A stretch of DNA of 64,000 bases from a phage, in sequence record PQ400055.1. One strand, written 5' to 3'. The notes below the pieces were generated by a model. The model did not search any database. It was given only the letters and a program-made list of their open reading frames with translations, and was not told the origin of the DNA. Within the stretch, counting starts at the first letter, position 1, and every line of letters starts with the position of its first letter. This document shows, in pieces, positions 4,936 to 57,914 of the stretch. Both the position numbers and the translations under genes were made by a program.

Positions 4936-4945
4936 CATTTTTAAC

Positions 4946-5104: not shown

Positions 5105-5137
5105 CTCGGAACTATAACTAATTTTTGAGGTTACTTT

Positions 5138-6628
5138 ATGGCAGATTTGAAATATGGATCTACTGTAGGTGGATCTCCCATTTGGACGCAAGGAAACTTG
5201 ACGATCCAGCCAGCGGGGGATCAGCTTTTCTACAAAGGTCATAAAATCTATACCGCTTTTGATAGACCTTCGGCTACCGATTTTGATGCTGTTAGTGCAT
5301 CCGAAGGTGGCACATTTCAAAAGCAAGTTCATTTCGAGGAAGGTTTAAGCGTAGGTAGCGCATCGGCTGGAGAAACCAAAAAGAATGGTATCTTTAAAGG
5401 TCAGAGCGACGCTGCTAATTTTGACGGCGTAAGCTGGGGTTTGCATTCATGGAAGTCAATCGGCTTTGTTAATGCCCGTGATGGCGTTATTATGGCGTAT
5501 ATTGACACCACAACGGGCGAATTTAAGTCTAAAGGGACTATCGAAGGGACAACCATTAAAGACACAGGTCAACGTGTCTATAGCCCTGTTAATAAACCAA
5601 CGAATAATGATTTGGATTTAGTTTCCCGTCGCGGTGATACTCTCTCAGGAACGTATAATTTAAACACTGTCACTGTTAAACTATCGGTTGATTCGAAATT
5701 AATTGCAAGGGAACGTGATTTAATTAATTTTGATGCGACTAAGATCTATTATGGTAACGTTCTTGATACGTTGGTCTTCCGAAGTAAAGATGAGCCTACC
5801 ATTTTTGTTAATGGCAGAGAAGGTCGTTTTTATCACACCAACAATAAACCAACTAAAGCCGATGTTGGGCTAGGCAATGTCACCAATGATGCACAGGTTA
5901 AACGTGCTGGTGATATTATGGAAGGTAACTTGCAAGCGCCTAGAATGTTGGCGACAAACGATCCCGCTGGTCCTAATGAATTGGTTCGTTTGAGCTACTT
6001 TGAGCGAAAATCAATGGTAGCAAATCCAACCATCATTGGAAACGTTGATTGGAACACTCTTATTAATCGCGGTATCTATCGTGTGGAAAATGCTGGGTCA
6101 GGTACTAATAAACCGTCTGATAGCTATTATAACGGCGTTTTGATGGTATATCGACCAGAAGATGCGGTCGGTACTCGTCGAATTGTTCAGGTGTATTATC
6201 CTGAATCTATTGACCATCCGATGTGCTGGCGTTCGTGTTCTAATGAATCATGGACTGCATGGAACTATGTAGATCACCGTAAATTAGCCGATATTCGCTA
6301 TGTTAACGTAACTGGCGATACCATGACAGGACCGTTAACTGTTCCGGCTGCAAATGGCGTTAGAACAGCTAAAACTAACTATAACGGGGATAACTGTTAT
6401 GCGGCGTTAAGCGGTGCTGATGGTACTGCTATGATTCACCGCATTAGTGATATTAAAGGGACCGAAAAGCTGGGGATCACCCACGACTCAAAGGTCGTGT
6501 TTTTCCGTTCTCGAAACAATACTCAAACCGTGGACCGCTATCAGCTTTATCATGAAGGTAATAAACCTACTCCGGCTGATGTTGGAGCGGTTCCACTTAA
6601 TGCGGTGATTGATTTTGGTACTTTCTAA
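5138..6628 (+). CDS. 36: long tail fiber distal connector (gp36), extended relative to T4
   Basis: N-terminus MADLKYGSTVGGSPIWTQGNL matches T4 gp36 MADLKVGSTTGGSVIWHQGNF; 496 aa vs 221 aa in T4; late promoter TATAAATA upstream. Confidence 0.82.
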   Translation: MADLKYGSTVGGSPIWTQGNLTIQPAGDQLFYKGHKIYTAFDRPSATDFDAVSASEGGTFQKQVHFEEGLSVGSASAGETKKNGIFKGQSDAANFDGVSWGLHSWKSIGFVNARDGVIMAYIDTTTGEFKSKGTIEGTTIKDTGQRVYSPVNKPTNNDLDLVSRRGDTLSGTYNLNTVTVKLSVDSKLIARERDLINFDATKIYYGNVLDTLVFRSKDEPTIFVNGREGRFYHTNNKPTKADVGLGNVTNDAQVKRAGDIMEGNLQAPRMLATNDPAGPNELVRLSYFERKSMVANPTIIGNVDWNTLINRGIYRVENAGSGTNKPSDSYYNGVLMVYRPEDAVGTRRIVQVYYPESIDHPMCWRSCSNESWTAWNYVDHRKLADIRYVNVTGDTMTGPLTVPAANGVRTAKTNYNGDNCYAALSGADGTAMIHRISDIKGTEKLGITHDSKVVFFRSRNNTQTVDRYQLYHEGNKPTPADVGAVPLNAVIDFGTF

Positions 6629-6632
6629 TTTT

Positions 6633-6657
6633 AGCGGGGATTATCTCCCCGCTTTTC
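6633..6657 (+). terminator. rho-independent terminator after gene 36
   Basis: agcgggga-ttatc-tccccgct followed by tttt. Confidence 0.65.
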
Positions 6658-6698
6658 TAAATAATATTATTCTAATAACCGTTTAAGGATTTTATAAA

Positions 6699-9942: not shown

Positions 9943-10599
9943 ATGCAAGTTTCTGAAAAAGGGAAAGACTTTGCTATCTCAAATGTCCTGCGCGCTATTT
10001 TCACAACTAAAAGCACGGAGTTGCTCGTACTTCGTGTTTTTGCTGCCGTCGTGTTGTCCATATTAGCATTTGTCGTTTATAGTAAAAACGAGTTATTTGC
10101 GCTTTATAAAGAGACTCGTTATGAGACTTATGCTCACATTCTCCAGGTAGAGAAAGACCGCAATTTTGATAATGCAGCACAGGAGCAGTTACAGATAGTT
10201 CATGTGTCGGCTGATGCCGATTTTTCTGCTGTTTTTAGTTTTCGTCCGAAAAACCTAAACTATTTTGTTGATTTGGTGGCATATGAAGGAAAGCTACCGC
10301 ATACAATCGATGAAAAAAATTTAGGCGGATTCCCTATCAATAAAACGAGTGAAGAATATCGTAGGCATCTTTTAGGTAAATCATATTTTACCGATAAAGA
10401 TTTCCAGTATATTCCATCAAGAGAAAAGAAATTAGAGAATATCGATATAGGTTTCATGTATTCTTGTCCTATATTCAATCTCGATAATGTCTATTCTGGT
10501 AGTATCGCCATTTCATGGAAGAATAAACCGGATATTGACATTGAGAATTTAGATACTCTTTGCAATCAATCTGCCAGAATCCTCGGAAGGATTAGATAA
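9943..10599 (+). CDS. t: holin
   Basis: 218 aa, same length as T4 holin t; motifs YKETRYETYAHILQVEKDR, QLQIVHVSADADFSAVFSFRPKNLNYFVDLVAYEGKLP and MYSCPIFNLDNVYSG match T4 t. Confidence 0.92.
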   Translation: MQVSEKGKDFAISNVLRAIFTTKSTELLVLRVFAAVVLSILAFVVYSKNELFALYKETRYETYAHILQVEKDRNFDNAAQEQLQIVHVSADADFSAVFSFRPKNLNYFVDLVAYEGKLPHTIDEKNLGGFPINKTSEEYRRHLLGKSYFTDKDFQYIPSREKKLENIDIGFMYSCPIFNLDNVYSGSIAISWKNKPDIDIENLDTLCNQSARILGRIR

Positions 10600-10604
10600 C
10601 TTAA

Positions 10605-10638
10605 AGGGGAAGCCTTTCGGCCTCCCCTTCTTTTTTAT
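10605..10638 (+). terminator. terminator after holin t, at the convergence with minus-strand genes
   Basis: aggggaagcc-tttc-ggcctcccct followed by tcttttttatt. Confidence 0.75.
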
Positions 10639-10883
10639 TGGCGCATAGAAGCCCCTGAATCACATTTTGACGCTGTATGATGAAAACAGGTAGCGTACCA
10701 GTCATCGGCTTGTTTGTCTTCGTCAGAAAACGCGTAATTGCGTTGTATGCCGTTTTCTACTTTGACCAGTGCAATAGCTGTTTCTGGAAGATCAATCAAT
10801 CGGACAAAATCGCCATCTTCCCATTCTACACGAGCAATATCATAACCCATCTCAAAATAAACAATCGCTTGTTCTAATTTCAT
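10635..10883 (-). CDS. hypothetical protein
   Basis: 82 aa ORF convergent with t; no recognisable similarity. Confidence 0.45.
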   Translation of the reverse strand: MKLEQAIVYFEMGYDIARVEWEDGDFVRLIDLPETAIALVKVENGIQRNYAFSDEDKQADDWYATCFHHTASKCDSGASMRQ

Positions 10884-12449: not shown

Positions 12450-13208
12450 TTACTTGCAAACGTATTGATCTACATCAATTGCGCCACCGAATGTGGGATG
12501 ACGTTTTTCAAATCGAATAGTTCCGTCGTTTGGTTCGAAAACGGAGTATTCATATAGATCTTTCTTGCCAACATTCTTATAAAACCCGCCTTTCGTCATA
12601 ACGGTTTCTTGTACGTTTGCTTTGTGTACGTTGTATTCATCAATGTATACAAAATCAACCATCTTCCCATTTTTAATGGTTACTTTAAGATCCCCTGGCT
12701 GGTTTCCATATTTTGCATACAGTGGAGCCTCTTTAATTTTTGTGGAAATTCCATCTTTCATACTCCACTCATAACGAACGGTGCATTGATAGGTAAAAGT
12801 TTCGACCTTCGGTTCTTCTACCACTTTTGCTTCCTGTTTCGGTTGTTCTTCTTCAACCTTCGCAGAAGTCTCTGAATCGCTTTCTGACGCGGTTTCTTCT
12901 TTAGGTAATACATTCATCAAGTTTTGGATTTGAGCGTTATATACAGCCTCCAGTGGCTGAATCTGCCCGATATTGATCATTGTATCACGAACAGTTTTAT
13001 TCCAGTTTCGTTGCTCTTGTTTCAGAGACGGATCAATCTTAACAGCCTTAACATACACCTCATGAAGTTTAGAGTCCAGTGCGGAGATAGACTCATTAGC
13101 ACAAATAAACTTCTCTGATTTGGTAGTAGCTTTAGCGCAATCAAAGGACGCAGCGTTAGCACCGAAAGCAGTAGCAGAAAGAACGATAGCAGCGATAATG
13201 TTTTTCAT
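12450..13208 (-). CDS. secreted protein with LprI/DUF1311-like (lysozyme-inhibitor-type) N-terminal domain
   Basis: 252 aa; signal peptide MKNIIAAIVLSATAFGANAAS; motif FDCAKATTKSEKFICANESISALDSKLHEVY...EQRNWNKTVRD fits the DUF1311 pattern; preceded by promoter cassette at 13237-13271. Confidence 0.6.
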   Translation of the reverse strand: MKNIIAAIVLSATAFGANAASFDCAKATTKSEKFICANESISALDSKLHEVYVKAVKIDPSLKQEQRNWNKTVRDTMINIGQIQPLEAVYNAQIQNLMNVLPKEETASESDSETSAKVEEEQPKQEAKVVEEPKVETFTYQCTVRYEWSMKDGISTKIKEAPLYAKYGNQPGDLKVTIKNGKMVDFVYIDEYNVHKANVQETVMTKGGFYKNVGKKDLYEYSVFEPNDGTIRFEKRHPTFGGAIDVDQYVCK

Positions 13209-13236: not shown

Positions 13237-13271
13237 GGGAGTATCTTACTACTCCCTTAATCCGGTGTCAA
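13237..13271 (-). promoter_or_regulatory. sigma70-type early promoter cassette with palindrome around the -10
   Basis: Minus strand TTGACA-17-TAAGAT; inverted repeat GGGAGTA/TACTCCC brackets the -10. Confidence 0.6.
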
Positions 13272-13282
13272 CTACTTTTAAA

Positions 13283-13603
13283 TTATTTTCGCCATTCACC
13301 GGAAACAATAAAGTTTGTAAAGTGATCGTGGTCCATGATAACGTCATTAAGTACCATATGTGGATACACTTTAGTGATAATTTTACTAAGTACCATATGC
13401 GGATATGCTTTAGTGTAATCACGTTTACGATCAGTCATCCAGCCAACGAAAGTTGGTGCAAAGTACGGTACACCGTCAGACGATGCCATATTAAACCCTT
13501 TATCAACCATAAATGCAGCCGCCCTAAGATTTTTAATTGAAGTAGTGCGACTAATTTCAAAAACTTTATCGGTAAAATTCATTTTAAGCCCCCGCTCGTG
13601 CAT
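13283..13603 (-). CDS. hypothetical protein containing a 13-aa tandem duplication
   Basis: 106 aa ORF; in-frame 39-bp tandem repeat at 13348-13422 (KAYPHMVLSKIIT / KVYPHMVLNDVIM). Confidence 0.45.
   Translation of the reverse strand: MHERGLKMNFTDKVFEISRTTSIKNLRAAAFMVDKGFNMASSDGVPYFAPTFVGWMTDRKRDYTKAYPHMVLSKIITKVYPHMVLNDVIMDHDHFTNFIVSGEWRK
13348..13422. repeat. 39-bp tandem direct repeat (2 copies) inside a coding region
   Basis: taagtaccatatgtggatacactttagtgataattt / taagtaccatatgcggatatgctttagtgtaatcac. Confidence 0.6.
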
Positions 13604-13793
13604 TAATACGCATTTTCTGTATAGCCATGATCTGGTTTACTGCTTCTTCTTTACGTTCTTGCGTGATAATGTGACCAGATTCCGCAAACTCTCCAGCAAC
13701 TTCTTCTACGATCTCGCGAACTTGAGAACGTCCAAAGATGCGGTTTCCTTCGTAGCTCATAAACTCTGTTACTACTTGCTCGATAGATTTCAT
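13584..13793 (-). CDS. hypothetical protein
   Basis: 69 aa ORF preceded by promoter cassette and RBS aggag. Confidence 0.5.
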   Translation of the reverse strand: MKSIEQVVTEFMSYEGNRIFGRSQVREIVEEVAGEFAESGHIITQERKEEAVNQIMAIQKMRINARAGA

Positions 13794-13815: not shown

Positions 13816-13850
13816 TGGGAGTATGTTACTACTCCCTTATCTTTACGTCA
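13816..13850 (-). promoter_or_regulatory. sigma70-type early promoter cassette with palindrome
   Basis: Minus strand TTGACG-17-TAACAT; GGGAGTAgtaacaTACTCCC; then conserved leader and AAGGAG. Confidence 0.6.
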
Positions 13851-31292: not shown

Positions 31293-31928
31293 TCAAGCGA
31301 ATGTAGAAAGCAAACGTTTTGTTTCTTTCAGTTGTCGTTCAAGATCTTTGCGTTTCTCTTTAAGTTGCATTTTAGCATTATTTCGCTCTCTTGTAACCTC
31401 TTTATCAATGCTCTTATTCCAGTTATCAATATCAGAATAAGTTGGCATACCCAATTCTAGACCTAATGCGGTTGGATACAGGGTAACAGTCCATAAACCG
31501 CTAATCTTCTTAAATAGGTCGGGGTGTAGTGTACTATCTACATCTTCCGGTGTCAACTCTTTTTCTTCTTTCAGTGGTGGGATCTCGTCATATGGTTCCA
31601 GTGCATTTACTTTAATATCAGATACCTCATCAAAGAATCCGCGTACATCCGCAGGAAATACACAAGCAATTTCCCAACCGTGATCACGCAGAGAAGTAAT
31701 ATTTTTCACTCCCCCACCATGTGTGATGATTGATGTGACATTGCCATCAAGGTCCACCGAATTTACGAGAAATGGCTTATCGTCTGTCAGATCATTATAA
31801 AACTGTGCTTCGGCTGTAGTCATCTCCAGAAACAGATCTCGGATCGGACGACCATCAGGTGCGTTACCTTCCTTGAGAGTATAAAAGCGACTTACGATCC
31901 ATTTTGGCGGTAAAGCATTAGCGATCAT
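31293..31928 (-). CDS. hypothetical protein
   Basis: 211 aa ORF between gp41 and gp61. Confidence 0.5.
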   Translation of the reverse strand: MIANALPPKWIVSRFYTLKEGNAPDGRPIRDLFLEMTTAEAQFYNDLTDDKPFLVNSVDLDGNVTSIITHGGGVKNITSLRDHGWEIACVFPADVRGFFDEVSDIKVNALEPYDEIPPLKEEKELTPEDVDSTLHPDLFKKISGLWTVTLYPTALGLELGMPTYSDIDNWNKSIDKEVTRERNNAKMQLKEKRKDLERQLKETKRLLSTFA

Positions 31929-39798: not shown

Positions 39799-39824
39799 AA
39801 AACGGGGAGTATTTTATACTCCCC
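39799..39824 (-). terminator. stem-loop with T-tract between genes 45 and 44
   Basis: Minus-strand ggggagtat-aaa-atactcccc followed by gtttt; just downstream of a -10 element. Confidence 0.55.
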
Positions 39825-46846: not shown

Positions 46847-48316
46847 CTATTCCCCATTACCATTATACTTTCTTTGCTTAGTTATCCACACTCTAACCAT
46901 CTCTACAGATTCGCCGTCAGACGGATCAAGAGTTTTTCCTTTTTTCTTCATGCGGTACTTAAATCCGTTAAATCTTGCATTCTCTTGCTCGTTAAAGTCG
47001 AACATCTTTTTAAATGATTTTCGCCCTTTACGTTCACCACATTCTAGCGGAATCATTCGATCTGTTATTACATTGGCATTAGGCAGAAACGTTTTTAGAT
47101 AATCCACCAACGCCCAATCAGGAACATATAGATTAACATTCTCCTTGCTCTCGTTGTCTCTCAGGTTACAACGCAAACATAATTGAAATGCTGGTTCCAG
47201 ATAATCAGACACATGACGCGCTTTCAAAAACTCGTTTGTCGGGAGATCACAACTATTAGCAAGACCTTTTAAAATATCAATCTCCCATCGTTGAGGGTTA
47301 AAGCTGAACATCACAGCAACATTTTTATGATGAATGTAAGAGTTAAGACCATAAGACCCGTAAGGTATCCGCTCACCAATACCATTTGTACACGCTTCAC
47401 GGTCCCGATTCACGGTATAAATGAAGTCATCGCCACATTCATTTTTAACCATATCAACAAGACGTTCAAAGGTATTGTTTGTTTCTGACTGGTGACGCGA
47501 CCATCGTTCAGAGTCCGTCATAAGGATGATATTAACTCTATCTGTATTTTTATACTCTTTGAAATATAGTCTGGATTCTAGCGCACTCGGAACAAAATCG
47601 CAATTTGCATAGTATCGTAGATACTTCCCACTATATGTATCAAAGAGATTTGCACATGCTATCGTAACCTTTTTAAAGTCTCCCCACGTACCGTGTTTGT
47701 TATCGTTCAAGAAAACAATTTTCGACCCATTCTTCCGGTGTCCTTCGTTATGTTTTACCATAACGTTGATTTTCTTCTCTAATAACGCCTCATAAAGCCC
47801 TCTAAGAGAAGAATCGATCATATCAGTACCATCCTTCGCACTTTCTATCTTTTCTTTGATAGCGGCCTTCTCAGAGTCTTTTAGAACTAAGTTCTGTAGG
47901 CATTCCGATTCGTCGGCGATTGGTTCGCAATGCTTCGTGATAAGTTCAAGATTAGACTTAAACGGATACTCATTAAATTCAACCAGTTGAGGAACTTCAT
48001 CAATGTAAAGAGCATAATCACCAAACATTTTTGAACGTTCCATATTAGATAACGCTGTATGTGTAATGAATATCACATCAGCACCATCTTTAACTGATTG
48101 CATTATCGACGCTTGCACTGTCTTAAGGCTTCTTAGTCTTGTGCTATCAATCAAGACAGCACGACCGCCCATTCTTTTAAACTTATTGTAAGATTGTTCA
48201 CTTAAAACACGAGATGGCGAAGCAATAACCGCTTTTTCTTTTGTCTCTAGGACGTGGGAAAGTATAGCATCAGTTTTCCCCGCCGCTGGCAATGCGATTA
48301 ATGTTTCAATCTTCAT
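46847..48316 (-). CDS. P-loop NTPase, possible helicase-like N-domain, function unknown
   Basis: 489 aa; Walker A-like LPAAGKTDA and DEAD-like YIDEVP; C-terminal ~300 aa without recognisable motifs. Confidence 0.55.
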   Translation of the reverse strand: MKIETLIALPAAGKTDAILSHVLETKEKAVIASPSRVLSEQSYNKFKRMGGRAVLIDSTRLRSLKTVQASIMQSVKDGADVIFITHTALSNMERSKMFGDYALYIDEVPQLVEFNEYPFKSNLELITKHCEPIADESECLQNLVLKDSEKAAIKEKIESAKDGTDMIDSSLRGLYEALLEKKINVMVKHNEGHRKNGSKIVFLNDNKHGTWGDFKKVTIACANLFDTYSGKYLRYYANCDFVPSALESRLYFKEYKNTDRVNIILMTDSERWSRHQSETNNTFERLVDMVKNECGDDFIYTVNRDREACTNGIGERIPYGSYGLNSYIHHKNVAVMFSFNPQRWEIDILKGLANSCDLPTNEFLKARHVSDYLEPAFQLCLRCNLRDNESKENVNLYVPDWALVDYLKTFLPNANVITDRMIPLECGERKGRKSFKKMFDFNEQENARFNGFKYRMKKKGKTLDPSDGESVEMVRVWITKQRKYNGNGE

Positions 48317-48783: not shown

Positions 48784-49042
48784 AAATCGCCCTCAGTTCT
48801 TTATAGCCTCCAATGTGCTCGTTGTCAATGAATATCTGGGGGTATACAAACCGGAGGCTCTTTGAGTTTAGCCTCCCCGCCAGTTCTTCAATCATATCAC
48901 GGTCGGGAATAATGTCAACCCCGACCTGCTTGAATACTGGTTTAAGTGTATACGGAATACCCAGATCATCCAGTAGCTTCATTGCACTAATACAACCATA
49001 ACAATGATAAGCCTCTTTCGGTATACCGTATATCTCGATCAT
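48773..49042 (-). CDS. glutaredoxin/thioredoxin-fold protein (NrdH-like)
   Basis: 89 aa; CxxC active site YHCYGCIS near the N-terminus. Confidence 0.65.
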   Translation of the reverse strand: MIEIYGIPKEAYHCYGCISAMKLLDDLGIPYTLKPVFKQVGVDIIPDRDMIEELAGRLNSKSLRFVYPQIFIDNEHIGGYKELRAIYDY

Positions 49043-49560
49043 TTCTCAGCCTTTAATCTTTCTAGTTCTTCTTCCAGTTCCTTGATCCGTTGGTCACGTT
49101 CAAAGTCACGCTGTAGCTTAGTGGCAAATACTCGCTTAAACTGATTGTAATCATCGATTTTAAACACTTCTTCTTCGCCATAGCGACGTACAGAAACTTC
49201 GTAGTTGTTGAAAAATTGTTCCAACATTGCATCAGTAGTCAGTTCTGACGACACCACTTTAAAATAACGTTCTTCTGATTGCAAAAACCAGTTGTGCGCG
49301 TATTCCCGTACATCATCAACATCTCGACAGGTGTATGTTTTTCCATCAATTTCAATCGCAGAAACATATTCGATATCTGACGCAATTTTTTCAAAAGCGA
49401 TAACTTTAAATGTACGGTCACCGATAAAGTCTGCTATTGCATCATTTGCAACACTGGTTGCAAATGCTTTCCGCGCTCGCTCGTTTTTCCACTGATAGGT
49501 CATACCAACAACAAACATATTACCATCAACAAACATATTACCAACCTCGCTCTTTACCAA
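49039..49560 (-). CDS. paralogous-family protein, member 1 (one repeat unit plus coiled-coil tail)
   Basis: 173 aa; motifs GMTYQWKN...FKV...IEIDGKTYT...WF..ERYFKVV; C-terminal RIKELEEELERLKAEK. Confidence 0.55.
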   Translation of the reverse strand: MVKSEVGNMFVDGNMFVVGMTYQWKNERARKAFATSVANDAIADFIGDRTFKVIAFEKIASDIEYVSAIEIDGKTYTCRDVDDVREYAHNWFLQSEERYFKVVSSELTTDAMLEQFFNNYEVSVRRYGEEEVFKIDDYNQFKRVFATKLQRDFERDQRIKELEEELERLKAEK

Positions 49561-50362
49561 TCAAAAATTCAACTTCACGACGTTTAATGTCTTCTTGAAG
49601 GTCTTTAATCTTCTGGCGATCTTGCATGATTTCATCCATCTTGTCAAGTGCCGCAATGAAATCATCGAAACGTTCAAAGGTTTTACCTTCATTTGCTTCG
49701 CCAAATTTAACCATTGTCAGGCCGTAACGACTACTAAACAGACGTTTCAACTGTCCAACGATCTTAGAATCAGTGGTTATAACTTCCAATTCTTCTACTT
49801 CACGAAAGAATTTTCTATCAGAATCAATAAACCAGCTAGTTCCTTTATGGTCTCTATCTTCGGTTGCGCTCATTAGAGTATGGTCTTTACCATCAATTTC
49901 AATTACATCAATTTGCCCACATGGACTAACATTTTTAACAGTAAAAGGTCTATAATTTATTGCTCGTGCAATAACATAATTAAGGTTAGATACGTTTTCA
50001 GCATAATGGCAGAAGTCGGTCATAGCATTCGCATCTTTCCAAGTATAAGTTTTACCAACTTCCCATTTCTGGGGAACTTCTTCAACTTCACGAAAGAATT
50101 TTCTATCGAATGGACTAAAGAAATATGTGGCAGTCCAAATGTCTTTTCCTGTAGCAGTTTTCGCCGTATGATAAACACCGTCTAGCTCTATTGCATCAAT
50201 CCAACCGTTACCATCGATCTCGATGATGGTAAATGGCTTGTCACCAATAGCTGCACTAATATCGCTGTTAAGTGGAGAAAGAACACCTTCTCCGTTAGTA
50301 ATAAACTCAGTTTTAGCGTTTTCATCTTTCCAGGTGTAGGTTTTACCAATTTCCCATTTCAT
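49538..50362 (-). CDS. paralogous-family protein, member 2 (two tandem repeat units plus coiled-coil tail)
   Basis: 274 aa; WEIGKTYTWKDENA...PFT..IEIDG...RKFFREVEE twice, then a coiled coil. Confidence 0.55.
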   Translation of the reverse strand: MKWEIGKTYTWKDENAKTEFITNGEGVLSPLNSDISAAIGDKPFTIIEIDGNGWIDAIELDGVYHTAKTATGKDIWTATYFFSPFDRKFFREVEEVPQKWEVGKTYTWKDANAMTDFCHYAENVSNLNYVIARAINYRPFTVKNVSPCGQIDVIEIDGKDHTLMSATEDRDHKGTSWFIDSDRKFFREVEELEVITTDSKIVGQLKRLFSSRYGLTMVKFGEANEGKTFERFDDFIAALDKMDEIMQDRQKIKDLQEDIKRREVEFLIGKERGW

Positions 50363-50374
50363 AATATATTCCCC

Positions 50375-50875
50375 TTAACCGATTTTATCAAGTTCGTTTA
50401 ATGCTTTCTCTGCTTCCTGTATAGCTTGCACTCTTTCCGGCATTTTGTCAAGAAAATCTTTCAACTCTTCAAAACTGGAGATATGACGCAAGGCATTAGC
50501 ACCGATAGCCGCATGTGATTTGCATTCAAAGCGAATTTTATAATTATCCATCGCCAATTTGAGAAGGTCTATTAGATCATATTCATGACCAGGCAATAAA
50601 ACTTCTTTGAAGCACGCTCGGTCGCCATCGGAAAACCATATATTATCACCAACATCGATAGAACTAATATAATCCCCTTCGTGATTATAGATTGAACGTA
50701 CATTACCCCAACGGTCTACCGTAGCGACAGTAAATGGTTTATCTAGATATGTAAACACACCATCAATATTAGGTTTTTGTTCGTAACGCCAACAATCACG
50801 CAAAATGCGCTTTTCGTCCTCACCAACCAACTTATATGTCTTCCCTTCTTCCCATTTCATAATATCATCTCTCAT
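50375..50875 (-). CDS. paralogous-family protein, member 3
   Basis: 166 aa; WEEGKTYK...PFTVATVD...WFSDGDRACFKEV plus C-terminal coiled coil. Confidence 0.55.
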   Translation of the reverse strand: MRDDIMKWEEGKTYKLVGEDEKRILRDCWRYEQKPNIDGVFTYLDKPFTVATVDRWGNVRSIYNHEGDYISSIDVGDNIWFSDGDRACFKEVLLPGHEYDLIDLLKLAMDNYKIRFECKSHAAIGANALRHISSFEELKDFLDKMPERVQAIQEAEKALNELDKIG

Positions 50876-51402
50876 TTTTTGATACGTGATTCTAATTGGA
50901 TCATACGGTCGCGCGTTTGCTTGTATTCGCGGATAGCACCGATCCGGCTAGGCATACCATCAAGCACGCTCTTAATCCCTTCTAGGGTAGTGATTTTAGC
51001 AATGCTATTATGTAACCCCATCTTATCGATCAACTGAATGTCGTAGGCTTCCATAAGCAGACCCAGACGTTCTAAAGTTAGGTCTTCTTCTTTTTCTTCC
51101 GATTCTGGAATCTTAGGTTCAATAATAACTTCGGTAAAGAAACGACGCTCACCCGACCAAAACCACACACCGGAACAGCCAATAGGGGATTCTTTTAACG
51201 TCATAGAGTCGAAATCACTACCGATAATAGTAATTTCTCTAACATCACCATCATCGTCAATGTCTTCTACCCTAAACGGGCGACCAGCCAACAAGTCAAC
51301 AATACATCTGTTAATAGACGACGAAAATTTAGTCAGTTCGGCTTTCGACGCTTCGCATTCAATCTTGTAAGTTTTACCAACTTCCCATTCCATAATAATC
51401 AC
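50872..51402 (-). CDS. paralogous-family protein, member 4
   Basis: 176 aa; WEVGKTYK...PFRVEDID...WFWSGERRFFTEV plus C-terminal coiled coil. Confidence 0.55.
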   Translation of the reverse strand: MIIMEWEVGKTYKIECEASKAELTKFSSSINRCIVDLLAGRPFRVEDIDDDGDVREITIIGSDFDSMTLKESPIGCSGVWFWSGERRFFTEVIIEPKIPESEEKEEDLTLERLGLLMEAYDIQLIDKMGLHNSIAKITTLEGIKSVLDGMPSRIGAIREYKQTRDRMIQLESRIKK

Positions 51403-51403
51403 C

Positions 51404-51913
51404 TCAAATAATTTTCACTGGAATACTATTAACAATCTTGTATTGTACTTGATTGTCAGACCCCCGCCACGGCTTCTTCGTTGGCATATCTTTAATATAA
51501 CGCCCATCGATGAACATGTCAACTGATTCTACAATTTTTCTTTGCTCATCATTCAATTGGTCAAGGGTATAACCGGACCATAGCCAAATATCTTTATTTG
51601 GCATCCATGATTTTACTTCATCGATGATCCGCTGTACACCCTTTAAATTGCGTTTATACAGTGGATCGCCACCTAAGAATGTTAGCCCCTGAATAAAATC
51701 AGGTCTAAGCAGGTCCAGAATCAATCCCATTGTATCATCGGTGAATGGTTCCCCGTTCTTAGGATTGAGTAGGCTAGCATTAAAGCAACCATCACATGCG
51801 TGTGAACATCCGGTAACGTAAAGGGAGACTCTCACTCCCTCACCGTTAACCATATCACAATCTTTAATATCGGCATAGCGTAGTTTGCCGTATGTATCAG
51901 AACTCATATTCAA
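51404..51913 (-). CDS. nrdG: anaerobic ribonucleotide reductase activating protein (radical SAM)
   Basis: 169 aa; CSHACDGC radical-SAM cysteine motif; adjacent to nrdD region. Confidence 0.85.
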   Translation of the reverse strand: MNMSSDTYGKLRYADIKDCDMVNGEGVRVSLYVTGCSHACDGCFNASLLNPKNGEPFTDDTMGLILDLLRPDFIQGLTFLGGDPLYKRNLKGVQRIIDEVKSWMPNKDIWLWSGYTLDQLNDEQRKIVESVDMFIDGRYIKDMPTKKPWRGSDNQVQYKIVNSIPVKII

Positions 51914-52047
51914 TTACCCCGAACTCGTTTACAATCTGCGCTTTATAGTAACCACCGCGAGATGCTAATAGATAAGCTGGGCTTAGGTATTCGTATTCAC
52001 GGATTTCTACTTGTGCGTTTTCAGTTTCCCAAATCAGTAAAGTCCAC
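51897..52047 (-). CDS. hypothetical small protein (start moved to internal ATG)
   Basis: Track start 52124 lies inside the promoter cassette; internal ATG at 52047 has RBS ggag. Confidence 0.35.
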
Positions 52048-52091
52048 ATATTTGATTCTCCTGTAAAGTTGTATCTCGTCTTGATGAATAT

Positions 52092-52120
52092 AGTATAGGG
52101 GATCTCGCGATCCCCGTCAA
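52092..52120 (-). promoter_or_regulatory. sigma70-type early promoter cassette with palindromic spacer
   Basis: Minus strand TTGACG-17-TATACT; spacer GGGGATC-gcga-GATCCCC. Confidence 0.55.
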
Positions 52121-52124
52121 GCAT

Positions 52125-52673
52125 TTATTTTAAATTTTTTCGAATGTAGTCAGACCATTCCTTCCCTGTCAGTTCGGTCCCATTCTGGAAACTGAAATAT
52201 TCATACGGCATCGAGTCAAGATAAAACAGGATCATACATCGCGCCATATAATACCAATCACGATTAAAGTAAACTACGTTATCGCCAGTACCATCAGCAC
52301 CTTTATCATAACCATCGCGGGTACGGGCGACCCATTGAATAGTATCATTTTTCTCACGGATCGTAACAGGTTCCCAATATCCAGCACATCCAGCATGACC
52401 ACACGAACAAGTAATGAAATATTGTCCTTTTGCTTTGTTGTCATCCCATTCACGATGGATTGGTTCGATCTCGTGAAACAGTGCTAAGCAATCATGATTA
52501 TGCAACACTGGCTTACCATCAATCAATGCATGGAATGTATACAAACGACCCGTAGACAAATAGCTATCCTCACGCTCAACCAGTTCAATAGCAATCTTTT
52601 TAGCTCGTTCTTTGTGTCGTTGTGCTTTACGCTTACGGTTTAATGATTTCATATTCACCTCACACATTATCAA
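52125..52673 (-). CDS. hypothetical Cys-rich protein
   Basis: 182 aa; basic N-terminus; CSCGHAGCAGYW cluster. Confidence 0.5.
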   Translation of the reverse strand: MIMCEVNMKSLNRKRKAQRHKERAKKIAIELVEREDSYLSTGRLYTFHALIDGKPVLHNHDCLALFHEIEPIHREWDDNKAKGQYFITCSCGHAGCAGYWEPVTIREKNDTIQWVARTRDGYDKGADGTGDNVVYFNRDWYYMARCMILFYLDSMPYEYFSFQNGTELTGKEWSDYIRKNLK

Positions 52674-53209
52674 AGGTCGCGATATAGTACATTATGAAAA
52701 TGAGAACTTGCATTACCAATATTGTAGATAATAAATTCTTCATCCGGCGCTTGCGCTACAAATTGAGTATGAGCAACCGCCACAACCTTAAAAATACGAT
52801 CCGTGATCTTGTGTTTAATTTCTGCCCCTACTTCCATAGGAACATATTCATTTGTTTCTGTTTCAGTCGCAAAACAGCCATCTTCTTCATAAGCACGAAC
52901 AAATCGATCGCAATCAGTACGCTTAACAAATTCAAGAGTATACAATTCTCGTGAATTGTCGGTATAGACCAATACAGAATTATTATGATAGCGAATCACA
53001 TACAGGTTATTATCATCGTCAATTACGCAAAAGCTACGGATTCCTTCGCCTTTACTCCAGCAGATATTAACCACCGTTCCTCTAATAAAAAAACTTTCCT
53101 TTAAATTAAAACTAGTCAATGTGCTAGCGTGCATTTTAACAACAACACCATCGCCAATTTCCAGTTTACGAAGTTTAACTTCTTTGTTCAGTACACAAAA
53201 CATCATCAT
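52670..53209 (-). CDS. hypothetical protein
   Basis: 179 aa ORF preceded by promoter cassette. Confidence 0.5.
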   Translation of the reverse strand: MMMFCVLNKEVKLRKLEIGDGVVVKMHASTLTSFNLKESFFIRGTVVNICWSKGEGIRSFCVIDDDNNLYVIRYHNNSVLVYTDNSRELYTLEFVKRTDCDRFVRAYEEDGCFATETETNEYVPMEVGAEIKHKITDRIFKVVAVAHTQFVAQAPDEEFIIYNIGNASSHFHNVLYRDL

Positions 53210-53238
53210 GTTGTCCTCTCGTTGTTTTCGATGTGAGC

Positions 53239-53266
53239 ATTATACATTAGCTAATCATGTTGTCAA
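53239..53266 (-). promoter_or_regulatory. sigma70-type early promoter cassette
   Basis: Minus strand TTGACA-16-TATAAT then ...CATCGAAAACAACGAGAGGA...ATG. Confidence 0.55.
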
Positions 53267-53278
53267 CACCCCAAAACG

Positions 53279-53303
53279 AAAAAGCCGACCCTTTCGGATC
53301 GGC
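53279..53303 (-). terminator. rho-independent terminator after nrdD
   Basis: Minus-strand agccga-tccgaaaggg-tcggct followed by ttttt. Confidence 0.65.
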
Positions 53304-53309
53304 TGAAAT

Positions 53310-55172
53310 TTACATGTGCTTAACGCGGTTTACCATCTCGGAGTGTTTCCCGTGGTTGAATGGACGCAGATCAACAGATCCAAGATATCCACTAACGCGA
53401 CGGATAACATTCATCTTTTCCAGATTGTCATTACCGCAATCAGGACAAACAAAACCAGACTCGGTCGCTCTCATTTCCTTAGTAGATCCGCATACATGAC
53501 ATACATCAGAAGGAGTATTAACACCGAAGTAGTGCAATTTATCCATTGCATAGTCTACTACAGTTTCAAGACCTTTCAGGTTGTTTTTCATGTCTGGGAA
53601 CTCAACATAAGAGATCATGCCACCGGACGCCAGCCAGTGATAATCTTTCTCAAAGTCAATTTTCTCAAATGGAGTGACTTTCCGGTCTACGTCAAGGTGG
53701 AATGAGTTGGTGTACCAGTCTTTATCGGTAGCACCCTTAACAATACCAAATTGCTCTCGGTCCAGTCGATTAAATCGATAGCAAAGGCTCTCGGCTGGAG
53801 TACCGTAAAGACTAAACCCAAGTCCGGTTTCGTCCTTCCATTTTTCAGTATAATGACGCAAGATCTTAAGAATATGTTTACCGTATCGCTGCGCATCTTC
53901 CGAATCAAACGGATGAACACCAAACAGGACGCTCAATACCTCATGTAAACCAATATATCCAAGAGAGATACTAGCGCGACCATCTTTCAACACTTCCAAA
54001 ATTTCATCGTTTTGATGAATACGGAAAAACGCACCTTCGGTATACAGCACCGGAGCAACATTGGCTTTAGCCCCTTTTAAAGCGTCTACGCGACTCATGA
54101 GCGCATCAAAGCAAATAGGCATACGATTGGCTAGCTCTTGTTCGAATAGCTCAATTCTGCGCATTACAGACGCTTTACCAGCACGACGCGCGGCAATAAG
54201 GGCAATACGCGGAAGATTCAGGGTCACAACACCCAAGTTATTACGTCCGTCTAATACTTCTTCTCCTTTCTCATTATGCCACACACCCAGGAAGCTACGA
54301 CAACCCATCGGGCTAACCGGAACACTAGATCCGGTGATACTACGGTTATTCTTCGCAGAGATATAATCAGGGTAAAGACGCTTACTAGAACATTCCAATG
54401 CAAGTTGCTTAATGTCGTAGTTCGGATCTTCCGGTTTAAGGTTTAATCCTTCTTCTAAGAACATCACCAGCTTAGGAAACACCGGAGTGATACCATCTTT
54501 ACCTAAACCTTTAGTTCGAACGTTCAGGATCGCTTTCTGAATCAGTTTTTCTTCCCAGCTAGTACCCATACCAAAGGTTAAAGTCACAAAAGGCGTTTGA
54601 CCGTTGGTGGAGAACAAAGTGTTGATTTCATATTCCAACGCCTGATATCCGTCTAACGTTTCTTTTTCTGTTTTCTCTTGTGCATAGAGAGTATCAGCTT
54701 TGATTCCGTAGGTTTCGGCATCAGCAAGGTGTTTATAATATGTTTTCTCAACATACGGTGCTAACACCTGATCGATGTTTGCGATTGTGGTCCCGCCATA
54801 TTGATGACTTGCCACCTGTGCGATAATTTGAGCGGTTACAGCACAAGCAACGCCGATTGATTTCGGACTTTCGATTTGTGCGCTACCCAATTTAAAACCA
54901 TTCTCTAACATGTCTTTGAGATTAACAAGACAGCAGTTAGTAAACGGCATAGCGGGTGCATAATCCATATCATGATAATGAATGTCACCGTCTACATGCG
55001 CTTTATAGATGTGCTCAGGTAACACGGTTTTAGCAATCTGTTTAGACACAGCACCAGCAATCAGATCTCGACGTGTCGGGAATGTTCGCGCGTCTTTGTT
55101 CGCGTTCTCTTTGCTTACTTCGTTTTCTTTACCCGTTGCGATCTCTGTAATGTCTTTGATTAGTTTTTCCAT
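53310..55172 (-). CDS. nrdD: anaerobic ribonucleoside-triphosphate reductase
   Basis: 620 aa; C-terminal zinc ribbon CHVCGS...CPDCG followed by glycyl-radical motif RVSGYLG; uninterrupted ORF. Confidence 0.9.
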   Translation of the reverse strand: MEKLIKDITEIATGKENEVSKENANKDARTFPTRRDLIAGAVSKQIAKTVLPEHIYKAHVDGDIHYHDMDYAPAMPFTNCCLVNLKDMLENGFKLGSAQIESPKSIGVACAVTAQIIAQVASHQYGGTTIANIDQVLAPYVEKTYYKHLADAETYGIKADTLYAQEKTEKETLDGYQALEYEINTLFSTNGQTPFVTLTFGMGTSWEEKLIQKAILNVRTKGLGKDGITPVFPKLVMFLEEGLNLKPEDPNYDIKQLALECSSKRLYPDYISAKNNRSITGSSVPVSPMGCRSFLGVWHNEKGEEVLDGRNNLGVVTLNLPRIALIAARRAGKASVMRRIELFEQELANRMPICFDALMSRVDALKGAKANVAPVLYTEGAFFRIHQNDEILEVLKDGRASISLGYIGLHEVLSVLFGVHPFDSEDAQRYGKHILKILRHYTEKWKDETGLGFSLYGTPAESLCYRFNRLDREQFGIVKGATDKDWYTNSFHLDVDRKVTPFEKIDFEKDYHWLASGGMISYVEFPDMKNNLKGLETVVDYAMDKLHYFGVNTPSDVCHVCGSTKEMRATESGFVCPDCGNDNLEKMNVIRRVSGYLGSVDLRPFNHGKHSEMVNRVKHM

Positions 55173-55185
55173 TGTATCACCTATG

Positions 55186-55207
55186 AAAAAGCGGGATTTC
55201 TCCCGCT
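55186..55207 (-). terminator. terminator-like hairpin directly upstream of the nrdD start
   Basis: Minus-strand agcggga-gaaa-tcccgct followed by ttttt, then RBS ggtga and the nrdD ATG. Confidence 0.55.
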
Positions 55208-55216
55208 CGTTGATAG

Positions 55217-55711
55217 TTATTTTACCAGTTCTGCTAATTCTTTTTCTTTAGCTTCTAGTTCAGCTTTAAGCTGTTTAATCTCTTGTCGCTTCTTATTAGC
55301 GGCTTCCTGCTTACTATTTCGGATAACCTGATCTAGATACAACTCCCAATCCTGAATATTTTTGATAATGTATCCGTCAACATTAATTGGTCGGAGATTC
55401 AGTACAGCTTCCAGTTTAGTCGCAAAAACTTTAATTGCTGGCGTGAAGTATTCATATTCGTTATCTTCAAACCAATAACCTAGACTTGCATTATCAATAC
55501 GAAGACGAAGTTCAAGATCAAGGTCTTTATCTTCGGTGTAAAGATCTTTCACCTGACCCAGCGAACTAACAACAACTTTAAAACGAATTTTATCTACACC
55601 ACCAAACACATCAGTAAGTATACCAGCAATTGAGCTATTAGCGCAAGATTGGTCGCTGAATGCGTCAAGGTTTTCTTTAGTTACAGTATACCAAACATCT
55701 TGTACCCACAT
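55217..55711 (-). CDS. paralogous-family-related protein with coiled-coil tail
   Basis: 164 aa; ...FKVV...WFEDNEYEYF... and C-terminal KQLKAELEAKEKELAELVK. Confidence 0.5.
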   Translation of the reverse strand: MWVQDVWYTVTKENLDAFSDQSCANSSIAGILTDVFGGVDKIRFKVVVSSLGQVKDLYTEDKDLDLELRLRIDNASLGYWFEDNEYEYFTPAIKVFATKLEAVLNLRPINVDGYIIKNIQDWELYLDQVIRNSKQEAANKKRQEIKQLKAELEAKEKELAELVK

Positions 55712-55735
55712 AATATAATCCTCTCGTTGTTAAGT

Positions 55736-55769
55736 GGGAGTATTATAGCATACTCCCTTCGCATGTCAA
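55736..55769 (-). promoter_or_regulatory. sigma70-type early promoter cassette with palindrome
   Basis: Minus strand TTGACA-16-TATAAT; GGGAGTAtgctataaTACTCCC; leader ...CAACGAGAGGATTATATTATG. Confidence 0.6.
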
Positions 55770-56944
55770 GCACTAACTTTTTTCTTTACTGCTTTCACCT
55801 TCTGGCGAATTGCTCGAATCTCTTCGATCTCTTTTTCAGTCTCTTTAACAATTTCTTTGCGATTCTGAATATCTGTATCTAGATTATCATCAAGTTTAGG
55901 CAGCATGTCAATCAAGAACTTTTTAAAGTCTTTCAGGTTTCGGATAACAGCACCTTCACCCATTACCGCCACGCCTACACCATCCGGCAGATCACCAAAC
56001 AGCTTAACCAGTTCAGACAGATGATCATGATCTTCTAGTGCTTCTTCCGGTTCAGATGGCAGTTCAACAAAGTTATAACGTTCATCATTGCTGATCAAGT
56101 GATACCAGCAAAGACCGAAAGATTTCGGTGTATATTCTACACCATCAATTTCAACCGCGTCAACACTTCCATAATCATCTACTTTAGTTACCTTAAATCC
56201 TTGTCCCAGCTTTTGAACAATTTCAACAACATGACTTGATACAGTTTCAGCGGTAAACCAATATGGCAAATTATGCTGATTTGGTTTGTAGCGTTCACCT
56301 ACTTTAAATCTCTGACCATCCGCTTGCATAGAATGAAATTGTTGTTTCGTGATTTCCGCGAAGTATTCAAATTCGCTACCGTCAAACAAGCAATTCCATT
56401 GATCACAAAAACGGTCCGCCTTGACGGTTTCACCTTTCGCGGTGATCATGGTAGCTGATCCGTGCAATTCTTCTTCAACTAAAAAGCCATATTCGACAAA
56501 ATCAACAAGTTTCATGGCTTCTTTGTGCTCTGGGTCATGCTCTCCCCAGAATCGCTTAAATTCTTGCAAACCTTCTGGGGTAAACGAATAACATTTACCT
56601 TTTTCAAAGTAAGTCGGCATTGCATCCTCTTTCTTGTTCATCGCTTCGTATGCCTCTTTTGAGATACGTTTAAAGTATTTGCGCTCATTGTGCATAATCA
56701 TAGTAGACCAATAATAAACGATATCCTCAGCGGAATAAACTACATCTCCAGCTTCAATAGTAATAACATGACCGTGGTCATCTTTTTCTAATACTTTAAA
56801 GCCCTTTTCTACGATTTCAGCAACCCGAATATGACCACGGCGCGAAGCATCGGTCAGAATAATTGAATAGCGAGAAAAGTCTAGAAACTCATCTTTACCG
56901 CCTTCACGGAATGCATAGTAATGACCTTCAAAGAATTTAGCCAT
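55766..56944 (-). CDS. paralogous-family protein (multi-repeat member)
   Basis: 392 aa; repeated ...YYAF...GFKVL...ERKYFKRISKE... units plus C-terminal coiled coil. Confidence 0.55.
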   Translation of the reverse strand: MAKFFEGHYYAFREGGKDEFLDFSRYSIILTDASRRGHIRVAEIVEKGFKVLEKDDHGHVITIEAGDVVYSAEDIVYYWSTMIMHNERKYFKRISKEAYEAMNKKEDAMPTYFEKGKCYSFTPEGLQEFKRFWGEHDPEHKEAMKLVDFVEYGFLVEEELHGSATMITAKGETVKADRFCDQWNCLFDGSEFEYFAEITKQQFHSMQADGQRFKVGERYKPNQHNLPYWFTAETVSSHVVEIVQKLGQGFKVTKVDDYGSVDAVEIDGVEYTPKSFGLCWYHLISNDERYNFVELPSEPEEALEDHDHLSELVKLFGDLPDGVGVAVMGEGAVIRNLKDFKKFLIDMLPKLDDNLDTDIQNRKEIVKETEKEIEEIRAIRQKVKAVKKKVSA

Positions 56945-56969
56945 AATATAATCCTCTCGTTGTTTAGAT

Positions 56970-57004
56970 GGGAGTATCTTACTACTCCCGTTTCATCATG
57001 TCAA
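56970..57004 (-). promoter_or_regulatory. sigma70-type early promoter cassette with palindrome
   Basis: Minus strand TTGACA-17-TAAGAT; GGGAGTAgtaagaTACTCCC; near-identical to the copy at 13237. Confidence 0.6.
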
Positions 57005-57585
57005 GCGTTAAATGACTTTTGGATCTCTTTCAGTTCTTCCACTTTCTCGGCGCTGAATTTAGCGTAGGTATCATGTCGAATAATTTCACTTTCAAGAAAG
57101 GTTTCCAGTCGAGATCTATTTTCAATAAGGAACTCTTTCAGGTCTTCCGCGTTCTTGATAAAGATTTTATTGTCGGTAATGTCATCTTCAATCGCAAAGG
57201 AGATAGAGCGAACTTTACCAAACAAGTTAATCAGATCTTCCAGAGATTCTTCTTTCTTAACTGGTTTCATTTCTTCAAACTGCTTTTTAGTGATGCGTTT
57301 AAAGTATTTGCGCTCGCTTGCATCAATCATGATTGACGCACCCTCATAATCATGAGTTTCTACCAAATACACTTTACCCATAACATTAACCGTAAGAACT
57401 TTAAAGCCCCTGTGAAGCACACCATACAGGAACTTGTTATGTTGTGGGTAGCGTTTAACAAATTCCTCTGCGGACTCAGCATTACGGAAAGTGTAATAAC
57501 GACCTCGTTCAAAAACAGCATCATTTGAAGACTTAGCCGGATACAATTTATACGTTTTCTGTACCATAATATAATCCTCTATCAT
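57001..57585 (-). CDS. paralogous-family protein
   Basis: 194 aa; GRYYTFRNAESAEEF...GFKVLTVN...ERKYFKRITKKQFEEM plus coiled coil. Confidence 0.55.
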   Translation of the reverse strand: MIEDYIMVQKTYKLYPAKSSNDAVFERGRYYTFRNAESAEEFVKRYPQHNKFLYGVLHRGFKVLTVNVMGKVYLVETHDYEGASIMIDASERKYFKRITKKQFEEMKPVKKEESLEDLINLFGKVRSISFAIEDDITDNKIFIKNAEDLKEFLIENRSRLETFLESEIIRHDTYAKFSAEKVEELKEIQKSFNA

Positions 57586-57854
57586 TTCACTAATTGAACA
57601 GCACGGAACAGAATGCGCTCACACGGAAGCAGCATAAATTCCCAACGCGGATCAAAGTCTTTAGCGGTGTACGTTTTCCCATCAACCGAGATTTCACTTA
57701 CATAACCAACAGGTGACACTTTAAGAACAGTAAACCCATTCTTGATGACTTCGTAGGTATCTTTCACCCCTTCGTATTCATCATCTAAGAAGTCTTTATG
57801 TGCTTGCTCAGATTTAAAAACATAGGCCACACCGGATTTAAACATCTTACGCAT
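57582..57854 (-). CDS. paralogous-family protein (single unit; start moved to internal ATG)
   Basis: MRKMFKSGVAYVFK...GFTVLKV...ISVDGKTYT; RBS aaggag; track start 57914 lies inside the promoter. Confidence 0.5.
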   Translation of the reverse strand: MRKMFKSGVAYVFKSEQAHKDFLDDEYEGVKDTYEVIKNGFTVLKVSPVGYVSEISVDGKTYTAKDFDPRWEFMLLPCERILFRAVQLVK

Positions 57855-57879
57855 TGTTGATTCTCCTTCTTGATTAGAT

Positions 57880-57914
57880 GGGAGTATTTTACTACTCCCA
57901 TTTCTTATTGTCAA
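57880..57914 (-). promoter_or_regulatory. sigma70-type early promoter cassette with palindrome
   Basis: Minus strand TTGACA-17-TAAAAT; GGGAGTAgtaaaaTACTCCC. Confidence 0.6.

Follow-up and report, generated by a model that had tools for sequence, protein, structure and literature searches.

The repeated domain of about 90 amino acids (aa) encoded by a set of small genes around nrdG and nrdD in the phage sequence PQ400055.1, here called the unit, very probably belongs to the GoF/Frd.2 family, corresponding to the N-terminal domain of these T4 proteins. The window analyzed was a 64,000-nucleotide (nt) stretch of this record, to which all coordinates refer. The ~8.9-kb region in question was 95-98% identical in nucleotide sequence to 59 RB49-like T4-type coliphages (Krischvirus, Straboviridae), and the source phage is, on this sequence evidence, an RB49-like T4-type coliphage of the genus Krischvirus. 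Eight minus-strand open reading frames (ORFs), named A to H in window order, were the homologues of RB49p048-051, which lie downstream of nrdG, and of RB49p057-060, on the upstream side of nrdD, and a ninth family gene, the homologue of RB49 dc2, was located immediately downstream of the replicative helicase gene 41. Sequence comparison indicates that A to H and dc2 are a lineage-specific expansion of the GoF/Frd.2 family in Krischvirus. Their products are likely to be early, accessory, non-enzymatic binders, and the process that they affect may, by analogy with GoF, be mRNA fate, which is proposed only tentatively. The genes and their units were the following (bit scores are from the leave-one-gene-out profile searches described below):

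49039-49536 or 49560, minus strand: gene A, RB49p048 homologue, 165 or 173 aa; one unit (ORF residues 13-108, 47.3 bits) and a 67-aa C-terminal module
49538-50362, minus strand: gene B, RB49p049 homologue, 274 aa; two tandem units and an 82-aa C-terminal module
50072-50362, minus strand: unit B1 (58.6 bits)
49787-50071, minus strand: unit B2 (61.5 bits)
50375-50875, minus strand: gene C, RB49p050 homologue, 166 aa; one unit (46.5 bits) and a 71-aa C-terminal module
50872-51402, minus strand: gene D, RB49p051 homologue, 176 aa; one unit (63.6 bits) and an 81-aa C-terminal module
55217-55711, minus strand: gene E, RB49p057 homologue, 164 aa; one divergent unit and a 69-aa C-terminal module
55766-56944, minus strand: gene F, RB49p058 homologue (frd.2 of RB49), 392 aa; three tandem units and a 94-aa C-terminal module
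56645-56944, minus strand: unit F1 (40.6 bits)
56330-56623, minus strand: unit F2 (29.4 bits)
56051-56317, minus strand: unit F3 (35.7 bits)
57001-57585, minus strand: gene G, RB49p059 homologue, 194 aa; one basic unit (isoelectric point, pI, 9.6; 44.3 bits) and a 93-aa C-terminal module
57582-57854, minus strand: gene H, RB49p060 homologue, 90 aa; a bare unit (52.4 bits) with no C-terminal module
31293-31928, minus strand: ninth family gene, homologue of RB49 dc2, 211 aa; one unit (28.2 bits) and a 106-aa C-terminal module ending in a charged helix

A hidden Markov model (HMM) of the unit was started from six units and searched iteratively against the complete set of 652 six-frame segments of the window. 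It converged on 12 units, 11 of them in genes A to H (two in B, three in F and one in each of the others) and one in ORF 31293-31928. When the model was rebuilt leaving out one gene at a time, every unit was recovered with 20-64 bits (E-values from 2e-5 to 7e-19, 652 targets), whereas the best of 500 shuffles per unit reached at most 12.7 bits. All-against-all BLASTP searches grouped A-B-C-D-H and F-G-H, with bridges between both groups. A preliminary description of the window had proposed eight minus-strand genes flanking nrdG/nrdD, with about a dozen copies of one fold in a variable, predicted early-transcribed region. All eight ORFs exist, their units align significantly with one another, the recurring motifs (WExGKTY, PFT/GFKV, IE[IL]DG and WF...[ED]RKFF.EV) were visible in the unit alignment, and the 11 units of these genes plus the twelfth in dc2 agree with the proposed number. 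The description had given one to four copies per gene; the repetition was real, but the maximum was three, in F, where a fourth unit was rejected because three units and the 94-aa tail use up all 392 aa. Both of its clusters were present, although the family had been slightly under-counted, since dc2 lies beyond the range that it covered.

The most divergent member was E (20.0 bits), whose unit aligned with the other 11 units in hhalign over 85 columns (E-value 2.3e-4, probability 44%). This protein also had a cross-hit to phrog_3710 at 2.4e-4, the C-terminal layout of the family and a position within the cluster. Pairwise identity among the units was 13-50%, indicating that the duplications are old, and at the DNA level repeats were found only in the conserved motifs and in an upstream regulatory module that is duplicated. 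The invariant or near-invariant columns of the unit alignment were core residues only (Y, F, V, G and F), and no conserved polar, His or Cys site was found in it. Within 49-58 kb, the unit HMM matched nothing beyond the eight genes; the three ORFs between nrdG and nrdD, considered as possible members, had no match to it and were unrelated.

The family assignment was supported by several searches. The unit HMM, built from the window only, matched residues 3-91 of T4 GoF with 37.7 bits and residues 2-87 of T4 Frd.2 with 20 bits. The match to T4 MotB.1 was marginal (8.8 bits, E-value 0.07, partial alignment), and MotB.1 is placed on a separate branch of the GoF/MotB.1/Frd.2 family by Kim et al. 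2025 (PMC12152347), who published it as a family with an 'LSm-like fold' and made no mention of RB49 or Krischvirus. In PHROGs, families with the label 'goF mRNA metabolism modulator' were reached directly by A, B, F, G and H, and by D only via cross-hits to shared families, which makes six of the eight proteins. Three PHROGs families carry this label, and F matched phrog_8944 'goF' at 2.6e-214; 'goF mRNA metabolism modulator' is also the RefSeq name of the RB49 homologues of F and G. No protein of the set had a Pfam match at E-values up to 1 near any gathering score, NCBIfam returned nothing meaningful, and a PDB sequence search with the unit profile gave nothing below an E-value of 0.27. The domain had gone unrecognized in the preliminary description, which remains correct for the curated libraries (Pfam and NCBIfam) but not for PHROGs, RefSeq and the unit HMM, all of which lead to the GoF/Frd.2 N-terminal domain; the match is not to a well-characterized domain of known function, but to a family published in 2025 whose function is still unknown.

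The likeness to T4 GoF and Frd.2 extended beyond the homologous N-terminal domain of ~90 aa, predicted to be a five-stranded barrel with the same FeoA/SH3-like structural neighbors. Shared features were the layout (N-terminal barrel, linker and a small domain at the C-terminus that carries the strand-helix motif 'I.n.edfk.fL'), the acidic character of the proteins, a predicted early-gene context and an occurrence almost exclusive to T4-type phages. The two groups differed in copy number: T4 has three genes of one domain each, at two loci, and the RB49 type has twelve domains spread over nine genes, with fusions of two and of three domains. They also differed in location, since the RB49-type genes flank nrdG/nrdD and adjoin gene 41, whereas in T4 goF and motB.1 are near gene 39 and frd.2 is near frd and gene 32. 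The C-terminal module was longer in the RB49 type and ended in a charged helix of 25-35 residues that T4 GoF and Frd.2 lack.

The family was surveyed by running HMMER exhaustively over 1.84 billion representative proteins, with a cut-off of E ≤ 1e-3; this replaced a word-indexed search with the 12-unit alignment, whose prefilter let through only 9 matches. The scan yielded 82 clusters, about 74 of which were phage-type proteins of 76-392 aa with an N-terminal unit, the T4 GoF and Frd.2 clusters included. Eight long matches (807-1721 aa, with 4-12 short stretches each) were surface or repeat-rich proteins that matched a short part of the profile only, and once their sequences had been inspected they were discarded as false positives. 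Of 77 proteins of the family (the three T4 founders added to the ~74 clusters), 62 had one unit, 14 had two, and only F had three.

The rest of the RB49 genome, including 50-146 kb, was scanned with the family HMM and no further clear member was found, indicating that the Krischvirus complement is nine genes and twelve units; no family gene was present in RB49 at the position of T4 goF/motB.1 (gene 39 to dexA). Two marginal, partial matches, RB49p109 (E-values 0.0015-0.008) and RB49p125 (E-value 0.04), located at 6409-6741 and 10240-10683 of RB49 50001-85000, were not accepted; they could be very remote relatives or chance matches. In a neighbor-joining tree the units of A, B1, B2, C and D were placed together, those of F1-3, G and H were nearest to Frd.2, and that of dc2 was nearest to GoF. 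This grouping by physical cluster fits tandem duplication in place followed by fusion, and the genes appear to have arisen in this way, with domain fusions of two units in B and three in F.

Comparison of relatives shows that units are still being gained, lost and swapped among Krischvirus strains. Protein B occurred with two units, at 274-281 aa, or with one, at 174-185 aa; in the two-unit forms, unit 2 existed as two alleles that differ strongly. A metagenomic protein of 154 aa combined an N-terminal half of the same pattern as the D unit with the C-terminal module of B, which points to recombination between paralogues. The F orthologues were all of 391-392 aa, with at least 82% identity across relatives. 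Among orthologues the units diverged faster than the C-terminal module: identity was 78% and 64% for units 1 and 2 of B, and 92% for its tail, and 85%, 91% and 79% for the units of F, and 93% for its tail.

Local expansion of the family is recurrent in T4-like phages, as indicated by an independent array in Yersinia phage MHG19 (OQ331036; Tevenvirinae), where four family genes with five units, including one two-unit protein, occupied positions 3918-6744 of the MHG19 stretch examined, at the T4 goF position adjoining the topoisomerase gene 39. A 146-aa ORF segment scoring 53.6 bits with the family HMM was detected in an unannotated gap of Serratia phage ChuuTotoro (ON287369; Vequintavirinae; positions 5998-6435, plus strand, of the stretch of this phage examined); this is a missed gene, which places the family outside Straboviridae as well. 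An IMG/VR search with the B alignment returned two Krischvirus contigs only. No earlier account of this set of RB49 paralogues came up in a literature search; within the searchable literature, the expansion in Krischvirus, the three-unit architecture found in F only and the modular variability appear to be new.

Structural comparison, which covered the PDB and viral predicted structures, was based on an AlphaFold2 model of B built from a 26-sequence alignment (mean predicted local distance difference test score, pLDDT, 77.5; both units ~85-90; linker below 50). The topology of the model was b1-a1-a2-b2-b3-b4-(a)-a-b5, with two helices inserted after strand 1; strands were located at residues 8-11, 44-49, 55-60, 63-65 and 90-93, and the pattern was repeated at 105-189. 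A Foldseek search of the PDB with this model placed the tandem MIB repeat of Mind bomb 1 first (E-value 4.9e-5), followed by FeoA, SloR and ScaR; other near solved folds were the C-terminal domain of the DtxR family, the RNA-polymerase-binding Tudor domains of PcrA/UvrD and CarD, and the KOW domain of NusG. FeoA-type SH3-like domains were also the closest PDB neighbors in Kim et al. (PMC12152347). No Hfq or Sm chain was among the top structural matches, and for this reason the fold is described here as an SH3-like/FeoA-like barrel; judging from the model, 'LSm-like' is better treated as a published label than as demonstrated membership. Among the viral predicted structures of BFVD there were 72 matches at E ≤ 1e-3, one of them named GoF; the named matches were uncharacterized proteins, all from tailed phages, mostly T4-like (from enterobacterial and Aeromonas hosts), plus phAPEC8.

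The MIB repeat (PDB 4tse) and B both have two tandem SH3-like barrels in one chain, aligned over 166 columns, and the MIB barrels bind peptide motifs; nevertheless, the former is a domain of a eukaryotic E3 ligase, its identity to B is 14% and the template modeling score (TM-score) only 0.2-0.3, and it is an architectural analogue of B rather than a relative. The SH3-like domains of FeoA and of DtxR, IdeR, SloR and ScaR differed from the units in sequence (6-14% identity, with no match to Pfam FeoA, PF04023), in their metal ligands, since the units have no conserved His, Cys or acidic residue, and in context, the units having neither FeoB nor a regulator associated with them. With Hfq and the Sm/LSm proteins the units share a small, bent, five-stranded antiparallel sheet, and an analogy for RNA-related roles was proposed by Kim et al. 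(PMC12152347), but helix placement differed in the units, which lacked Sm motifs and the corresponding Pfam matches.

Tails of 67-106 residues followed the units in all the family proteins of the window except H. These small alpha/beta modules aligned in a common pattern, in which a first helix led to one or two short strands, then to an 'I.s.edfk.fLd.m' helix and finally to a charged terminal helix, and the modules of F and G were homologous (BLASTP, 5e-7). In the model of B the C-terminus was a single long helix (residues 242-271, pLDDT ~58-75). The preliminary description had given each protein a short C-terminal coiled coil; a tail was present in seven of the eight, but the coiled coil was not established by heptad scoring or Pfam, where matches to coiled-coil entries in C, E and F were sub-threshold only, and it stands as a reasonable guess and not as a result.

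Early expression was suggested by strong putative promoters of the sigma-70 type preceding H, F and E, and an intrinsic-terminator-like hairpin followed E:

57886-57914, minus strand: putative sigma-70-type early promoter before H, TTGACA-17-TAAAAT; the palindrome GGGAGTAGTAAAATACTCCC spans its -10 hexamer
56976-57004, minus strand: putative sigma-70-type early promoter before F, TTGACA-17-TAAGAT, with the same palindrome GGGAGTAGTAAAATACTCCC
55742-55769, minus strand: putative early promoter before E with perfect consensus, TTGACA-16-TATAAT, with the palindrome GGGAGTATGCTATAATACTCCC
55186-55206, minus strand: intrinsic-terminator-like hairpin in the gap between E and nrdD, read from the sequence as GCGGGA GAAA TCCCGC followed by TTTTT

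The candidate promoters matched the consensus at 12/12 or 11/12 positions (E and H) and at 10/12 positions (F), and would fit early transcription of these genes. In the annotation of phage GEC-3S, promoters are placed at the same positions as those before H and E, and a terminator at the same position as the hairpin, which ends the H-G-F-E block. The promoter and leader module of 78 nt was duplicated before F (56927-57004) and H (57837-57914), and a leader/Shine-Dalgarno string, AACAACGAGAGGATTATATTATG, was shared by E (55709-55734) and F (56942-56967), with a weaker copy before ORF 52670-53209 (53204-53229), indicating that regulatory sequence was copied along with, or between, these genes. 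The perfect inverted repeat GGGAGTA-N5-8-TACTCCC occurred six times in the window (13237-13256, 13817-13836, 39805-39823, 55736-55757, 56970-56989 and 57880-57899), where none was expected by chance. It spanned the -10 hexamer at the E, F and H promoters, and the copies at 13237 and 13817 were just upstream of ORFs 12450-13208 and 13584-13793. This element could be operator-like, or a promoter-subclass signature of RB49-type phages.

A role as non-enzymatic binders is favored because the units have no conserved polar, His or Cys site and evolve faster than the tails. The genes would be transcribed from the sigma-70 early promoters and the proteins would act in the pre-replicative phase, with barrels and tails serving as binding modules: the variable barrels would recognize a ligand, and the conserved C-terminal module may provide self-association or a common partner. 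As to the process affected, mRNA fate is put forward, without great confidence, because the only phenotype in the family is the RNA stabilization and rho suppression caused by GoF mutants. GoF(D25Y), unlike wild-type GoF or MotB.1, stabilizes a gene-41 leader reporter RNA post-transcriptionally, and GoF D25Y and G84R suppress rho alleles (PMC12152347). By analogy, the proteins of the RB49 type might keep early transcripts produced by read-through from being degraded or from being lost in a Rho-linked way, either by direct RNA contact or by binding of a host RNA-processing or termination protein. The RB49-type phages have neither motA nor middle promoters (PMC1524935), so that their delayed-early genes must be reached by read-through, where Rho-linked effects matter. 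The dc2 gene adjoins gene 41 and its unit is the closest to T4 GoF, and the known GoF phenotype concerns gene 41 mRNA.

Several units of the RB49 type naturally carry the gain-of-function residues of GoF. The residue equivalent to G84 was K or R in six of the 12 window units, the one equivalent to A83 was R in nine, and the one equivalent to D25 was F or Y in four; the G84 and D25 features coincided in B2, F1 and D. At the G84 position, K/R was the commonest class across the family (31/83 residues). That suppressor residues are common in the Krischvirus units, and at G84 in the whole family, suggests that the suppressor mutations restore a family-typical state and do not create a new one.

A number of observations weigh against this explanation of the array. 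Residue equivalence to GoF relies on alignments at 15-25% identity. None of the genes goF, motB.1 or frd.2 is essential in the laboratory and their knock-outs plate normally, no function is known for the three wild-type proteins, wild-type GoF and MotB.1 barely affected the reporter, and AlphaFold3 gave neither a GoF hexamer nor a dimer with confidence (PMC12152347). Ten of the 12 units were acidic (pI 4.3-5.1), as were nearly all the whole proteins, a poor fit to general RNA binding. Regarding oligomerization through the tails, a crude heptad score was within ~2 standard deviations of shuffled sequences and did not discriminate, and in D and G the best window was not C-terminal. The only confident structural model was that of B, since the AlphaFold2 model of F, built on nine near-identical orthologues, had a pLDDT of 41.7 and was not used.

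The first alternative, advanced in the preliminary description, is that of diversified protein-binding inhibitors for host takeover or anti-defense, in which each acidic barrel would neutralize a different host protein. Such a target could for instance be an immune sensor or a nuclease, or else Rho, RNA polymerase or a component of the degradosome, and array variation would reflect an arms race. This reading is considered unlikely, but it is a serious one because 10/12 units are acidic, wild-type GoF is inactive in the reporter, and the solved structures nearest in fold are SH3-like modules that bind peptides or proteins, which also counts against a role in mRNA fate. No surface residues are conserved in the units, which evolve faster than the C-terminal module and which, between one Krischvirus strain and another, have been gained, lost, swapped and recombined; an independent tandem array has formed at another locus in MHG19, the genes are, from their sequence context, early and of a dispensable type in a variable region, and the goF mutations suppress host rho alleles, all of which would be in keeping with such inhibitors. 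On the other side, F has a nearly invariant architecture, with identity of at least 82%, which is unusual for an arms-race binder, and RNA stability is the only experimental phenotype in the family. A literature search on goF with defense or escape terms gave nothing relevant, and no member was linked to a defense system.

It is very doubtful that the proteins are genuine Sm/LSm (Hfq-like) RNA chaperones whose units form RNA-binding rings of six or seven members. Kim et al. class the N-terminal domain of GoF/MotB.1/Frd.2 as LSm-like, with Hfq among its structural relatives (PMC12152347), the three units of F and the two of B could give pseudo-rings by dimerization or trimerization, and one unit (G) is basic; but the topology differs, with helices between strands 1 and 2 and not an N-terminal helix, the domains are acidic and have no Pfam LSM or Hfq match, and no GoF hexamer or dimer was predicted with confidence by AlphaFold3 (PMC12152347). 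Least probable of all is a role as accessory factors of the anaerobic ribonucleotide reductase NrdD/NrdG or in metal handling, suggested by the FeoA-like fold and by the two clusters immediately flanking nrdG and nrdD, because the unit lacks residues that could serve as ligands (His, Cys, Asp and Glu are nowhere conserved in it, and metal ligands are absent from GoF too; Kim et al., PMC12152347), Pfam FeoA gave no match, members occur at unrelated loci (gene 39, frd/gene 32, gene 41 and gene 39 of MHG19), and, with the terminator and with promoters of its own, the H-G-F-E block would be a transcription unit separate from nrdD.

Within the preferred reading of early binders acting on mRNA fate, a more specific and speculative version, to which only a small probability is given, is that of a 'binder array' of fast-evolving barrels on a constant, self-associating tail. 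Such an array could take over part of the early-to-middle transition in the RB49-type phages, which lack the MotA/AsiA system of middle promoters, by shielding long early read-through transcripts against Rho-linked termination or decay, with paralogues tuned to different transcripts or host factors. D25Y and G84R would then be reversions towards an ancestral active state kept in many Krischvirus units (B2, F1 and D).

GoF has been a long-standing gap in T4 biology since the rho/nusD suppressor work, and its family was recognized only in 2025. That an RB49-type genome spends ~5 kb on nine genes and twelve domains argues for a useful role of the family. The divergent units, some with natural GoF gain-of-function residues, could serve at once as naturally occurring variants to be run through the reporter assay that already exists, and six of the eight genes, as well as dc2, which are 'hypothetical' in the RB49 RefSeq record, could be re-annotated. 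If the function were the binding of host factors or immune sensors, these phages would matter further, being widely used in therapy-oriented collections.

Some details of the gene layout were also recorded. Gene A probably starts at ATG 49536, one base past the B stop with the same spacing as in RB49, while its longest ORF begins at TTG 49560; its N-terminus (49516-49560) reads 'NMFVDG NMFVVG', resembling a short in-frame tandem duplication, which makes the gene about seven codons longer than RB49p048. Gene C has an alternative start at ATG 50860, gene D, directly downstream of nrdG, has candidate starts at GTG 51402 and ATG 51393, and the start of gene G in the RB49 annotation is the equivalent of ATG 57567. 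The start of H was placed at ATG 57854 because a longer ORF from a TTG would overlap its own promoter. ATGA start/stop overlaps between D and C (50872-50875) and between H and G (57582-57585), taking the longest ORFs, suggest translational coupling; the RB49 and GEC-3S annotations put the starts of C and G later than the longest ORFs. Just downstream of the first cluster, the 489-aa ORF 46847-48316 (minus strand), whose sole match was phrog_2467 (unknown function), has an N-terminal Walker-A-like 'PAAGKT' and is a putative NTPase.

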